Source: Flaccisagitta enflata
Lineage: Eukaryota
Length of the DNA stretch: 64,000 nt
Direction of reading: 5' to 3'
Assembly (NCBI GenBank): GCA_965153355.1
Contig: OZ231126.1
Span: 18,290,001-18,354,000 of the forward strand
Shown: positions 29,101 to 35,100 of the stretch, in pieces
Numbering within the stretch: position 1 is the stretch's first letter
How the letters are laid out: the number at the start of each line of letters is the position of its first letter
The notes under the pieces: generated by a model
The model's database searches: none
Seen by the model: only the letters and a program-made list of their open reading frames with translations
Told to the model about the DNA's origin: nothing
Translations under genes and position numbers: made by a program

Positions 29101-32100
29101 CAATACTGGGATTTGAGGGAGGGGATGTAGAAGAAGAAGGAGGAGAAAATCCCCCATATGTGTGAAAGCATAGGTCATCGACCCCTTTGGGGCCGCTGCC
29201 CAAAAAGGGCATACTTCTAGTCAGCATAGCATAGAGAAATTTTTACTGCAGTGGCCCAAATGCGTTTGTATCGGACATTCTAGTGAAAAGTTTCAGCCAT
29301 CTAGAAGAAGATGTGCATATTTTATGTAAAGTAGTTTGAGCCTGATTGTTTTGCACTTGTGTTATGTCATTTGTCTTGCTTATATATTTTATCTGTAAGT
29401 ATGAGAAATGGAGACGACGAGTTCTTGTCTCTGTTATAAACGTTTTGACGCAGCATGTTTCCAAATGACACCTTGAGAGAGAGAGAGAGAGAGAGAGAGA
29501 GAGAGAGAGAGAGAGAGAGAGAGAGAGAGAGAGAGAGAGAGAGAGAGAGAGAGAGAGAGAGAGAGAGAGAGACAGACAAACTCAGACAGACAGACAGACA
29601 GACTCTCAGACATGCTTCTCTTTCTTTCGGCAATTCAATAATTTACCTCATCTCATCAATGCCACAGTCTTTCCTAATAAGGGAAGCCATCAGTCTAGGA
29701 CTAAGCGCCTCGGAGCTTTTAGTTGAACCTGTGGAGAGACATAAAGAACGAATCATTGAACTTTTTCTGATGACATTTTCTTTCAAGTAGCGCACAAGCG
29801 ACACTTTAAAATAGTTGGGTAGGTAGGCAGGTTCGCGTTCGTAGATCCTTTGCCAACGGAAGGCCAATATGTTGGCCATAATGCAGATCTCTGATCAGGG
29901 GTGTTTATTCTTGAGTCGCTTTTGATTTTTTCCCCCCTGCCCTTGATTTTCTTCCCAACTATGTGTCGCCTCGCGTAATTATATCTATGATTTTCTTCCC
30001 CATATAGCAATAAAACAATGAAGTTAAGGTTTAAATAGTGTTAGATTGTGTTTTACTAATTGTGGTTTGTGCTTTGGTGCTGTCAAAAATCATATTTTCC
30101 CCAAATTTCCTTTTTTTTTCCCTTTTTTCCCCCTTTGATTGCCTTCCCCATCTCCAGACCCTTTGATTTCCCCTCCCCCCACGGGGGGGGGGGACTCAAT
30201 GATGTACAGGCCTGTGACTCTGATCGTTTCTGCCCCTGCCCTACCGCACGCGACTGTTTATCATCCGTGTATCCTGCCTTGTTTTTTTACATAAAGCTGA
30301 GAATCTATTGCCCCGACAATGAACTCATTCGAGTTTGTTTTCTTTTTCTGAAATTGAGGAAGCGAATGGAGCTATTTTCACCCCGAGGCGTTGCGAGGGA
30401 GAAAGTTTGTGTACGTGTTTATTTTAAGTTAGTGACGTTTGAGCTACAAGGCTAATTCAGAAAAGGTCTACGCTGTCATTATGAGTTTTAAGATGGATTC
30501 TAAGATCTGAAACAGTAAAGGTTAGCGTCACGCTTCCAGAACTTTTACACAGAGTTTGAATTCGTGGGAAGAATTAGAATAAGCCCAGCTCATTCTTGAT
30601 ATCCACATATTGAAAACTGCTTGATGAGAAATCTACATCACATCACATCAAATCACATCACATCACATCTAACTTATTACCAAACCTGTTTACTGTACCA
30701 TCTACCCTTCACATATGTATTTACTCCCTCCATCGGTCAAACTAATCATAGGTAATTGCAGAAATCCTGATGGGAATGTCATGGTGTCATTTTCAATAAC
30801 TAAGATAGAAGGGGTTGGATAAAATCAATATGCTAAAACGTTACAGTTGGCGTATCGCGAAAAAAGCCTAACAGGGCAAGTAACCTGTCAGGGCCGCATG
30901 CACGACTACCCAAGTCGCGTGCGGGTGGGCAGGGGCAGTGATCAAAAATGCTAACCAAGCATTTAGGCAGGAGCAGTAATGCGAAGAACGCTAAAAAAAG
31001 CAAATTATTATGGACCAACGGACCATCCGGCATCCGACCGACACAGTGGGTTATAGAGTCGCGTGCACGCGAGTAAAAATTGACTCACCAGTCGTGCATT
31101 GACTCGGCGAGATCGCCCCAGAATTCGTCCTCGTTTTCGCTTCTGTCGACTTTGGCGCATCGCTTCCTCGGCCCGTGATGAGTGACTTGACACTCCCACG
31201 GATCTCTGCAGCAAATCCCCTCACCGCAAAAACGACCCAGACTCACGAACGTGTCGCAAGCTTCGCGTCGCAGTAACTGCAGCATTCGACGTTTTTGCTG
31301 TTGTTGTTGTTGCTGTTGTTGTTGTTGCTGTGGTTGTCGTCTTCTTTGTGGTTGATTTCTTTCTTCATTGACTACTTCCGCGATATTTCTTTGAAATGTG
31401 TCCCCTTCTTGGTTGTCTCCTGCGTCCTTCACCGAGAAACGTCTCCGAATTTCGTCTTTTTCATCGATGAAACCATGTGTTGAAAAAGAAGAAAATGGTT
31501 TTTTTCTGCATCATTGCTTTTTTTTCTCAATGAAAACATTCAAAATTTCCTAGACGAATACACATATAGATACATCTTCATATATGTCTCCGGCTTTGTC
31601 CTTCCGTCCATCCTTCAGTCTTCCCCTCCGTCGCTCCATTGCATTGATACGTCCGTTGATCAGTACCGGATGATCTCTCTCTCTCTCTCTCTCTCTCTCT
31701 CTCTCTCTCTCTCTCTCTCTCTCTCTCTCTCTCTCTCTCTCTCTCTCTCTCTCTCTCTCTCTCGCTCTCTCTCTTTCTCTCTCTCTCTCTCTCTCTCTTT
31801 TTCCTCACCCACAAATTCGCGTCCTCTCCTTGGTTTCGCGCATCTATGGCCTCCAGAGGGCTCTTTCTGGCAAACCCACGGAGAAGTGCAGCATTTCCCA
31901 TTGTCGCCGCAAAATCGACGAAGACCGACGCACATTCGCCTCTCTGAATTAAAACAAGGCCAAGGCCGGATATTCGGCTATCTCAGTCGCTTGCGGGTGG
32001 GCAGGGGCTGTATTCGAGGTCACTAGAACATTTGGGCAGGAGCAGTGAGGCCAAAGCCCGCCAAAAGGGCGAAAAAGTGTGACCGGAAAACCAACAGACG

Positions 32101-35100
32101 GACAAAGCGGGGTAAAGAGCCGCGTACCTACGACTAACAAAGCCGTCTGGGCAATGGGCATTTGGATGCGTGATTTTCAAAGTAATGTAACGGACGGACC
32201 AACTGACCGTTGAAGGGACCAACGAACGGACCCACGGACGGACAAACATACAGACTCTCTTATAGACATGCGATGACGCATCTGAAAATATCAATTCATC
32301 CATGTGTTCAGTTAAAGAAAAAAGTCATAAGCTGATGGACGGATGGATTGAAGTAGTGAAGCACTGATACTTAAGCCCAGCGTGGGCCGTAGCGCACGCG
32401 TCTGAAAAAAAATGTCGTTGCCAGAGATCTTCAAAGAAAGAAAAATTTCAAACAGAACTCAATTCACTTTTCTTCCTTTTTTGTCACGGACTGGTAACTC
32501 TATAAAAGATTATGTCCGTCCGTCGGTCCGTCTCTAGGTCCCTTGGTTCATGGATCCGTTATGATTGAGTTGAAATGAGTGAAAACGCGCATTTTATATG
32601 CTGCAGTTGTGTTTGTGTGTGTGCTGTATGCCCCTGCCCACCCACCCGCGACAATATTGTAACCCCTCGTTACTTTTGTTTTATATATAAATGCCCTCAT
32701 CGAGAGAAAGAAACATGCCACTTGGGTTTTTAAAAAGGTTTTTTTAAACGTCCCTCTGTTGATTGGTCTGTCGGTCTTTTGGTCCATCTGAAAACGTATG
32801 ATTGGATTGGATTGGATTGGATTTATTGCTCAATGGTGTTCAGAACACTTTTACAATAAGATTGTAAATGAGCTGTGGAATCAACAATGTCACACAAATG
32901 ATGATAATCCAGCCGAGGCACGTGTTGGGCTACTGGGCCCTATTCAAAAGGAGCTTTAGTCGGGTGTCACGGAACATGTACTTGGACTTTTCTGGCGTAG
33001 CTGTCATTACCCACGCGTCCGCGACTGATTAGGACCATGAATCCGGCCTTGTTTGTCTTGGTACACGTTTTCCTCATCTTACCAGCTAGTTCAACGCCGC
33101 TTTCTCGTCGTCTTTCGATTAAGTCGTTGTTGACGTCAGCCTTTTGTTCGTGACTCGAACCGACGTCGGTCGCGCGGCTTTTGCCCGCCAGCGCCAGAAG
33201 CAGCACGACGGCAGAAGCTTGAACAACGACAAATAGCCGCATCTCCTTGGGTGGTAGTGGCGTGGCCTGCAGTGGCGTGGCGTGGGGTGGCGCGGCGTGA
33301 TCGCGATCGTAATCGTAATCGTGATAAAGGCGAATGTTTTTGACGTTAACTTGATTCACCGCCGCTACTTTATGCTTTGCGGAAATGATTTTTTTTTCCT
33401 TAAACATTTTAAACCATAAGAAAATAGACAATTCAAATTTATGGGAAATTTTTCTGTCCTTTTTTGTTCTTTTTAGTCGCGTGCACGCGACTCTACAACC
33501 CGCTTTGTCCGTCCGTCGGTCACGTTTTACTTTTTTTTATAATCTTATTTCTTCGACCTCACTGCTCCTGCCCAAATGGTCTAGTGACCACAAATATGGC
33601 CCCTGCCCACCCGCACGCGACTTCGGTAGCCGTTTATCCGACCTTGTTTCTTTTTTTCAATTTTAGTGAAACGATCATTCCTCGGGCTCGGTTTTTTGTC
33701 ACTTATCCTCATCCTCATATCATTCTTCTCTATCTTCATCATTGGCCCCAATACTCAAGTCCAAATGACCTCATGAGAAATGAGCTTCTTCAATCTTCAT
33801 ACTGCTCTCGCCCACCCGCACGCGACTTGGGTAACCCTAAAGCCCGGCCCTGGATCCGGACTTGTTCTTATCCACATTGACAGAAAAAAAAAGAGAATTA
33901 TGGTGGCGACACTCAAGAAGAAGTCAAGAGTTTCGCCCGCGCGAATGAATATACTTGAAAAGCAATAAATGGTATTTTCTTTATAAGACTTTAAGAGTGC
34001 TTGTTCTAAATGCGGCGATAACGCCTCCCATGAATTCCTTTGCAATCTTTTCAGTCCCAAGCCGCAGCTGCGACTGTCGTTTCAGTTTTAATGTTGTGTT
34101 AACTTTGTAGTTCGAGTTGCTCTAGACATTTGAAAGAAAATACAGTGGCACCCCGCCTCATCGGTCTCATTAGGACTAAAGATTTTTCACTTTTATCTCA
34201 GGATAACCTTTAAAGAGAGGTGAAATCACATTAAAAACTACCATTTGGGACCTCAAAATGTTGACCTTTATTAATGGGGAACCTTTAAAAGCGAGGCTGT
34301 TATTGCGGGGTTCCACTGTAGCAACATGGAATTTGGAAATGTTTACATTCAAACTACAGAAACAAAAATAGTGATTATCAGGCTTGTTTGTTGCTTGTTA
34401 TTTTTCATCTAAAGCACAAATAATTCTCTCTCTCTCTCTCTCTCTCTCTCTCTCTCTCTCTCTCTCTCTCTCTCTCTCTCTCTCTCTCTCTCTCTCTCTC
34501 TCTCTCTCCTTCTTTCTCTTTCTCTTTCTCTTTCTCTCTCTCTCTCTCTCTTTCTCTCTCTCTCTCTCTCTCTCTCTCTCTCTCTCTCTCTCTCTCTCTC
34601 TCTCTCTCTCTCTCTCTCTCTCTCTCTCTCTCTCTCTCTCTCTCTTTCTATCTCTCTTCTACACACATACTCAAATGCACTCTTCCTCTTTCTGTCATTC
34701 TCTCTTTTTAGTTGTGAACTAGTGACTTTTTTCCGTCTTTGCGTGAGTCTTGATGTCTGTGTTGTAATGGTTGGTTTGTATTTTGGTTTATAATTGTTTT
34801 GTTGTTGTTGTTGTTGTTGTTGTTGTTGTTGTTGTTGTTGTTGTTGTTGTTGTTGTTGTTGTTGTTGTTGTTGTTGTTGTTGTTGTTGTTGTTGTTGTTG
34901 TTGTTGTTGTTGTTGTTGTTGTTGTTGTTGTTGTTGTTGTTGTTGTTGTTGTTGTTGTTGTTGTTGTTGTTGTTGTTGTTGTTGTTGTTGTTATTGTTAT
35001 TGTTATTGTTATTGTTATTGTTGTTGTTGTTATGACTATCTTCAGTGCGGACAGACGAACAGAAAGACGCGCATTGAGTGGCTCATGGACTGCGCCCATT

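Follow-up and report, generated by a model that had tools for sequence, protein, structure and literature searches.

A candidate antisense gene in a kinesin intron of Flaccisagitta enflata encoding a predicted secretory precursor with two six-cysteine domains

A stretch of 64,000 nucleotides of the Flaccisagitta enflata genome (GenBank assembly GCA_965153355.1, contig OZ231126.1, positions 18,290,001 to 18,354,000 of the forward strand; hereafter the window) appears to carry on its minus strand a small three-exon gene, lying antisense within an intron of a kinesin gene and encoding a protein with two homologous six-cysteine domains, and we are highly confident that the locus is a real gene and that the exon model is correct. 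The sequences directly show an open frame with splice signals at its borders, a domain that is duplicated within it, and the retention of the whole layout in a relative, the database protein P0123. The full mechanistic reading, to which we give a probability of roughly 60%, is that one antisense gene encodes a secretory prepropeptide of 221 residues, from which two disulfide-rich peptides would be cut.

Gene model, duplicated domains and relatives

An earlier examination of this DNA from its letters, here called the sequence-only reading, had proposed that three GC-rich blocks of the minus strand splice in frame to about 221 amino acids, and the coordinates, borders, phases and base composition all bear this out. 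GT/AG borders delimit the blocks at 33242-33083, 31943-31809 and 31455-31085, which splice without a break in the frame and with phase 1 at both junctions, their 160, 135 and 371 nt (TGA included) giving 221 codons, and the codons split by junctions 1 and 2 are GAG (E) and GAC (D). The GC content of the exons is 0.51-0.56, compared to 0.404 window-wide and 0.45-0.53 in the kinesin exons.

Exon 1 (33083-33242, minus strand, 160 nt) opens with an ATG at 33242 and ends in phase 1 at the donor CTG/gtaaga, and its product consists of Met-Arg, an 18-residue hydrophobic stretch and an acidic pro-region with RRR. The hydrophobic N-terminus, encoded at about 33171-33242, is signal-like by hydrophobicity and the -3/-1 rule: 11-residue Kyte-Doolittle means are 2.0-2.7 for segments starting at residues 3-12 (covering residues 3-22), and they fall below 0 from the segment starting at residue 16 on, so that a hydrophobic core of residues 3-19 follows Arg2. 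When every minus-strand ATG-initiated open reading frame (ORF) between 31944 and 39300 (7.3 kb) was passed through a filter of hydrophobicity and phase 1, 7 ATG/donor pairs from 2 ATGs remained. The exon 1 donor is the best among them, agreeing with the consensus at 5 of 7 positions, whereas the second ATG is paired with a single donor that agrees at 2 of 7. Exon 1 is thus the sole signal-bearing ORF with a good phase-1 donor in this interval, which supports its place as the first exon.

Intron 1 (31944-33082, minus strand, 1,139 nt, gt...ag) separates it from exon 2 (31809-31943, minus strand, 135 nt, phase 1 at both ends), which has the acceptor ttttaattcag and the donor GTGG/gtgagg and encodes RR, a 35-residue six-cysteine peptide (domain 1, with Cys I to Cys VI at 31840-31932) and a PRRGR basic site (RRGREFV). 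Intron 2 (31456-31808, minus strand, 353 nt, gt...ag) contains a (GA)n microsatellite of 125 bp (31674-31798), and is followed by exon 3 (31085-31455, minus strand, 371 nt), whose acceptor is the first AG past the polypyrimidine tract. Exon 3 encodes an acidic spacer, a polyglutamine (polyQ) run (31291-31337), KRR...LLRR, the second six-cysteine domain (domain 2, 31157-31258), a conserved C-terminal tail of 23 residues (31088-31156) and the TGA stop (31085-31087), all on the minus strand. The nearest AATAAA on that strand, by its letters a possible poly(A) signal, lies 661 nt past the stop (30418-30423).

The two peptides had been called internal duplicates, with peptide strings that match the sequence exactly, and comparison confirms their paralogy: tblastn aligns domains 1 and 2 at E 5e-5 in the 64-kb search space, with 51% identity over 37 aa, and 23 columns are invariant between them, all six cysteines included. 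Both follow the cysteine framework C-C-CC-C-C (VI/VII), in the window and in P0123 alike, with loop lengths of 6-5-0-5-9 for domain 1 and 9-4-0-5-10 for domain 2 in the window, and of 6-5-0-5-10 and 9-4-0-5-10 in P0123. The domain 1 peptide of ~35 residues has a net charge of about +4, counted from the sequence. No third copy of the domain was detected by tblastn within the 64-kb window, where the gene is single-copy and forms no tandem array.

The most informative relative came from an exhaustive HMMER search of a profile of both domains against 1.84 billion representatives, which gave 4 hits at E ≤ 0.001; P0001 and P0123 were taken as true, the latter with E 3.3e-28 and two matched stretches, and P0124 and P0125 were rejected as repetitive proteins matched over ~20 residues only. 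P0123, which stands alone in its cluster, is a contiguous ORF of 196 aa from a JGI/IMG contig of 1,112 nt, and reads in order: hydrophobic N-terminus, acidic pro-region, ERR, six-cysteine domain 1, KKVRKGR, acidic/polyQ spacer, LFRR, six-cysteine domain 2 and a tail with FWGGLA. That the window blocks form one gene with this order of parts and these dibasic sites, as the sequence-only reading had it, is therefore corroborated by the same layout and sites in P0123, and the conservation of cysteines and frame that it had named as a check is found there as well, with 12 of 12 cysteines, the frame and nearly all loop lengths in common. P0123 crosses both predicted junctions unbroken, its residues FERRGC and YFDDEE agreeing with the split-codon E and D. 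Domain 1 of the window is 62% identical to domain 1 of P0123 (E 1e-15), and exon 3 matches its domain 2 plus tail with 54% identity over 65 aa (E 2e-23), whereas cross-domain matches between the two reach just 47-49%, so that the duplication predates the split of the lineages and both copies were kept. With tblastn, P0123 matches the exon 2 region at E 1.4e-20, though this alignment extends into the translation of the (GA)n array.

Closer relatives were found as a single-cluster match in a word-indexed database, in which the exon 2 ORF had no match. P0001 (146 aa) and P0002 (149 aa) are unspliced genomic ORFs on ENA contigs of 880 and 763 nt; they start in intron 2 in another reading frame and, shortly before the acceptor is reached, pass into that of exon 3, indicating that a frame-shifting indel is tolerated there. 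Domain 2 plus tail is identical to the window in both (68 of 68 residues), and the spacer past the acceptor shows 6 changes in 48-51 aligned residues, with polyQ of varying length (Fisher p 0.004-0.005 for spacer vs domain 2 plus tail). Since the changes fall in the spacer and none in domain 2 plus tail, the mature part would seem to be under constraint. JGI metagenome contig scans with exon 3 and with P0123 returned no relative.

The TGA stop sits inside a consensus-like donor, CTG/GTGAGT (31085-31092, minus strand). A fourth exon starting from it was considered and rejected, as the three relatives P0123, P0001 and P0002 share one aligned end point and no further domain occurs anywhere in the window; because P0123 ends where the aligned stop of the window lies, this GTGAGT is probably unused.

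Curated families recognise neither the exons nor P0123 above cutoff, in agreement with the sequence-only reading, which had not recognised a known family in it. The best Pfam match of the separate exons is EGF_4 at E 0.018, below cutoff, with no Conotoxin match at E ≤ 10, and sequence searches of the PDB with single exons and profiles gave only noise at E > 0.2, in which LDL-receptor class A repeats, polyQ proteins and Mo3964 were dismissed. A literature search found no description of the family, although supplements on CRP-I peptides or neuropeptidomes, which were outside its reach, could hold a relative.

Proposed processing and evolutionary mode

In the proposed mechanism, an N-terminal signal peptide would lead the precursor into the endoplasmic reticulum and be cut behind Ala19 or Ala24, the sites to which the -3/-1 rule points, and both six-cysteine domains would fold oxidatively, most likely as inhibitor cystine knots (ICKs). 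Subtilisin-like proprotein convertases would then cut at E-R-R before domain 1, at R-[RK]-G-R after it and at L-x-R-R before domain 2; the ERR, R[RK]GR and LxRR sites are present in both the window and P0123. A C-terminal glycine is the classic amidation signal, and the cut at R-[RK]-G-R, with loss of the last arginine, would leave such a glycine and thus allow domain 1 to be amidated. The predicted products are a cationic, maybe amidated peptide of ~35 residues and a second one of 38 residues, or of 59 if the tail stays. This tail, which had been described as an acidic tail after peptide 2, is itself conserved and may belong to the product: the window has no dibasic site between domain 2 and tail (P0123 has KKK there), and the motif F-W-G-x-L-A-x-S is kept in both, on which grounds the tail may remain attached. 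As for the polyprotein of two knottins that the sequence-only reading had envisaged, the duplicated C-C-CC-C-C peptides and the conserved cleavage sites stand, while release of the peptides and the knot topology, with disulfides I-IV, II-V and III-VI and the third threading the ring, can be put forward as predictions only.

Mature domains, loops, cleavage sites and tail are conserved, and signal, pro-region and spacer have diverged. With prohormones and neuropeptide precursors the predicted protein shares a signal, conserved peptides bracketed by dibasic sites, a possible Gly-Arg amidation site and fast-evolving acidic spacers, and the arrangement by which such precursors are recognised, a signal-like start plus conserved peptides bracketed by conserved basic sites, is found here; the products would, however, be unusually large and carry three disulfides, and no neuropeptide family with this sequence was found in the literature search.

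Precursors of the O-superfamily of conotoxins (PF02950) likewise share a signal, a pro-region, a basic site and a mature peptide of the C-C-CC-C-C type. In conotoxins, signal and pro-region are conserved, the mature peptide is hypervariable and the genes lie in variable clusters. Here the pattern between species is the opposite, an unconserved signal and conserved mature parts, and the conserved signal with hypervariable mature peptide that defines a conotoxin superfamily is replaced by an exon 1 that does not align and domains that are 54-62% identical. The architecture differs as well, with two domains per precursor, one per exon, an acidic/polyQ spacer and a conserved tail.

The CRP-I peptides of mussels (Mytilus), including the multi-array mCRP-I, are the third system to be compared; they share with the window gene a secreted precursor with a signal, a propeptide, a KR/RR site and one or more C-C-CC-C-C arrays predicted to be knottins. 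Their array is C(X3-6)C(X1-7)CC(X3-4)C(X3-5)C, and all arrays of a precursor form an uncut "pearl necklace" encoded by the fourth exon, which is the last, with conserved signal and pro-region, hypervariable mature parts, and clusters showing presence/absence variation (PMC10138031). The window gene departs from this in loop d (5), in loop e (9-10) and in loop a of domain 2 (9); in exon layout, exon 2 encoding domain 1 and exon 3 encoding domain 2, with a spacer of ~60 residues and flanking basic sites; and in a reversed evolutionary pattern with a single copy in the window.

Because the mature parts are conserved while signal and pro-region have diverged, and because the gene is single-copy in 64 kb, we infer that the target of the products would be a conserved one, either endogenous or microbial, on which they would act as a hormone- or neuropeptide-like signal or as a host-defence peptide, rather than as a fast-evolving venom. 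Taken further, and offered as a speculation that we would ourselves bet against, the gene might represent an endogenous, non-venom "two-knottin prohormone," that is, a conserved ICK-type signalling family of marine invertebrates. Its signal-pro-RR-knot module would be the sort of housekeeping gene out of which conotoxin-like O-superfamily toxins were recruited, domain 1 would be amidated and cationic, and the conserved helical tail of domain 2 would serve as a second functional element, either a receptor address or a sorting signal.

To our knowledge, most of the invertebrate ICK-type peptides described so far are venom toxins, and endogenous, slowly evolving ones have rarely been described. 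Such peptides bear on the origin of toxin scaffolds, and the locus offers a clean case: the gene is single-copy (within 64 kb), its two paralogous domains are ancient, its processing sites and tail are conserved, and no curated family covers it. Convertase-processed precursors of the knottin type are known as such; what sets this one apart is the two-domain polyprotein with one domain per exon, the polyQ spacer and the conserved tail. Should the gene prove to encode no more than a common defence peptide confined to its lineage, the knottin-like sequence family would be a new one all the same. There is also a lesson for annotation: a small gene of three short exons, antisense in an intron and flanked by repeats, is probably unannotated, and ORF-based callers recover the last exon only, as P0001 and P0002 show.

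Fold, counterevidence and rival explanations

Several results weigh against the reading of the gene as an expressed precursor of two ICK peptides. At the level of the gene, exon 1 and P0123 gave no BLASTP alignment at E ≤ 100 and thus show no N-terminal homology, and conservation as a whole rests on three related sequences in the databases searched. The P0123 contig is most simply taken as a transcript, since its ORF is contiguous where the window has two introns, and yet it may come from an intronless gene. Release of two separate peptides, and amidation, are read from the cleavage sites and would have to follow from them.

The minus-strand spliced transcripts by which the sequence-only reading had proposed to judge the model did not appear in the polyA run X7, where no reads fell on exons 1-2 and no joints were seen (stretch 31799-33600), a weak test that covered 12.16 million reads (about 6% of the run), with uncertainty as to same species or relevant tissue. 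The stretch was chosen to avoid the (GA)n array, with no host exon as a positive control and with exon 3 and junction 2 outside it. All 60 placed reads match two repeats within the introns, each over part of its length, 59 of them with an identity of 90-95% and 1 with 95-99%. Six marine metatranscriptomes were listed with 5-7% of words, and the three that were aligned (X1, X2 and X6) matched dispersed SINE-like (short interspersed nuclear element) repeats only, at 31982-32103, 32592-32713 and 33446-33600, and are therefore uninformative on the gene or its habitat.

Structure prediction, another check proposed with the knottin claim, gave models of moderate confidence. AlphaFold models built from three-row alignments have a mean predicted local distance difference test (pLDDT) score of 65.7 for domain 1 and of 66.1 for domain 2 plus tail (core 76-78). 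Both models show a beta-hairpin between Cys IV-V and Cys VI, the tail is predicted to be helical and the spacer disordered or helical. Foldseek returned 0 matches at E ≤ 0.001 for either (145 and 49 matches at E ≤ 10), and VIA-align, run on 48,161 chains, gave domain 1 no match at Z ≥ 2. For domain 2 a single match among the 48,161 was obtained, conotoxin MiXXVIIA (6ppc; Z 2.1, root-mean-square deviation 2.7 A), aligned over 33 of 33 residues with 39% identity, and this peptide is a mini-granulin, not an ICK. Residues 2-64 of P0123 match positions 4-70 of the 75 of Pfam Conotoxin PF02950 at E 4.1e-4, but the 21.7 bits stay under the gathering cutoff of 25.1 bits. In the Atlas, the named neighbours closest to domain 1 are cyclotide and families of spider ICKs (0.77-0.88), and those of P0123 are mostly spider and cone-snail toxin precursor clusters (at most 0.81), with no granulin row in either; Atlas scores below 0.9 are leads only.

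On balance we consider it distinctly more probable that the domains fold as ICKs than as mini-granulins. The six cysteines, the adjacent Cys III-IV and the loops within knottin range are those expected of an ICK; loop b, for instance, has 2-7 residues in 90% of knottins (PMC10138031). The preference itself is owed to the loop lengths of 4-10, the near-threshold Conotoxin hit and the Atlas neighbours.

The rival that survives best, though we think it unlikely, holds that the gene codes for venom or defensive toxins of the conotoxin O-superfamily/ICK type, which a gland or epithelium would secrete and which would block ion channels of prey or predators. It would explain the framework VI/VII pattern and the signal-pro-dibasic-mature layout, the near-threshold match of P0123 across almost the whole Conotoxin profile, the toxin precursor clusters among the Atlas neighbours, and the top row of the domain 1 Foldseek list, the spider ICK toxin J-atracotoxin, though at E 2.4. 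Spider ICK toxins (Toxin_12 huwentoxin, omega-atracotoxin) have the same C-6-C-5-CC-5-C-9/10-C spacing and are nearest to domain 1 in the Atlas, at 0.84-0.88; no significant sequence or structural match to them was obtained, however. The toxin explanation is further countered by the Pfam score under cutoff, a host not shown to be venomous, a gene that occurs once in 64 kb and forms no tandem array, and the evolutionary mode, reversed relative to conotoxins and mussel CRP-I, with signal and pro-region not alignable and mature parts conserved.

Somewhat less probable still is that the domains adopt the mini-granulin fold, a stacked beta-hairpin with laddered or ICK-connected disulfides, and have growth-factor-like or other activity. 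MiXXVIIA has eight cysteines. Together with TxVIIB and H-Vc7.2 it belongs to the mini-granulin conotoxins, which are small, disulfide-rich and partly of framework VI/VII; this fold is thus open to peptides of that framework, and AlphaFold may assign them to the wrong one (PMC11035057). Besides the sole VIA-align match of domain 2, granulin N-terminal half-modules (1qgm, 1g26, 1i8y and 6cku) appear near the top of both Foldseek lists, at E 2.4-7.4. Neither Z 2.1 nor a Foldseek E above 2 is significant, however, and the structural match is weak; the known mini-granulin cases have inter-cysteine loops of 2-4 residues, compared to 4-10 here (PMC11035057); and no Pfam Granulin hit was obtained at E ≤ 10 on the exons or P0123, bearing in mind that the HMMER filters drop weak hits, nor did a granulin occur among the Atlas neighbours.

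We give little credence to a third explanation, in which the domains stay joined as a bivalent product like the secreted cysteine-rich repeat proteins (SCREPs), with the polyQ/acidic stretch as a linker. Two homologous disulfide-rich domains do lie in one chain, 65 residues apart in P0123 from the last cysteine of domain 1 to the first of domain 2 and comparably so in the window, and tandem-repeat bivalent venom peptides are a recognised class (PMC9885460). The spider double-knot toxin DkTx (6cuc), at rank 40 of the domain 1 Foldseek list, also has two knots per chain. Only a short linker connects its knots, however, and in the window gene the domains are kept apart by a long spacer and by cleavage sites that are conserved, the basic sites flanking each domain in both species, and the spacer is the least conserved part, with polyQ that varies between alleles and a predicted disordered or helical state, as is typical of excised prohormone spacers. 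The least probable explanation, an unexpressed or decaying copy left as an intact-looking relic, could draw on the lack of exon 1-2 reads in X7, on SINE-like insertions, one adjoining the stop codon and another the acceptor of exon 2, and on the absence of a TATA box close to the start (the nearest TATAAA being 299 nt upstream, within a repeat), but it hardly accords with an open frame, canonical splice sites, 12 cysteines and basic sites all intact across three exons, nor with allelic or sister sequences that show 0 changes in 68 mature residues against 6 in the spacer, and the RNA test was shallow and without a positive control.

Host kinesin and surrounding repeats

The nesting of the gene, antisense in a kinesin intron, had been proposed with the exon model and holds: tblastn with three annelid homologues places it inside a KIF28-type intron of ~14.8 kb, whereas the numbering of that intron as the fifth holds only if a short first coding exon lies upstream of 15110. 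The plus strand carries a KIF28P-type kinesin-3, matched by 2,452 of 2,633 candidate proteins at E ≤ 0.001, and the names KIF28 and KIF28P are common among the best named rows of the kinesin search. Exons on the 5' side of the host intron were located by tblastn at ~15110-15241, 16129-16215 and 23892-24035; the exon adjoining it upstream lies at 24325-24567 (Owenia homologue P0025, 37% over 81 aa, bounds approximate) and the one adjoining it downstream at 39327-39452 (three annelid homologues, 59-68% identity). Further exons, all on the plus strand, follow at 39677-39793, 40272-40379, 56244-56405, 58024-58092, 58634-58699 and 60765-60890. The KIF28 exons are 57-73% identical alike to annelid, mollusc, brachiopod, cnidarian (coral) and echinoderm homologues.

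One homologue, the KIF28-like P0003 of Capitella teleta, matches the plus-strand exon 56244-56405 twice, with its residues 204-250 and 253-303. Its database model seems to hold a tandem exon duplication or an annotation artefact, and the doubled exon explains the outlying score of P0003 in the kinesin search.

A dispersed SINE-like repeat of ~190 nt occurs in 12 blastn hits in the window, itself included. It has a head like TTTTTAGTCGCGTGCACGCGACTCTA, a middle rich in (GTCC)n and a CCCCTGCCCACCCGC tail, and no tRNA or Rfam match, the Rfam and tRNA scans of the window being empty. Copies lie at 30889-31079, starting a few nt past the stop codon of the candidate gene and so falling in its presumptive 3' untranslated region; at 31961-32140 in intron 1, ending 17 nt before the exon 2 acceptor; at 33470-33646 upstream of exon 1; and in at least 8 further places, e.g., 40639-40682, 42586-42978 and 46213-46320. 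Fragments of the element are abundant in contigs of three marine metatranscriptome studies, some at least 99% identical, which suggests that marine samples commonly contain the element or the lineage that hosts it.

The window as a whole bears a very heavy load of microsatellites, (GA)n, (CA)n, (TTG)n of ~240 bp and (GTCC)n, with examples visible in its letters at 22830-23400, 34425-34657, 34794-35031, 38290-38600 and 39816-40100. This load gives rise to many long spurious ORFs in all frames, so that ORF lists of this genome are dominated by artefacts. A long open frame at 10-1383 on the plus strand (457 aa), which runs off the start of the window and has Ser-rich and coiled-coil-like parts, could be the gag-like gene of a retroelement or else a further gene of the host.

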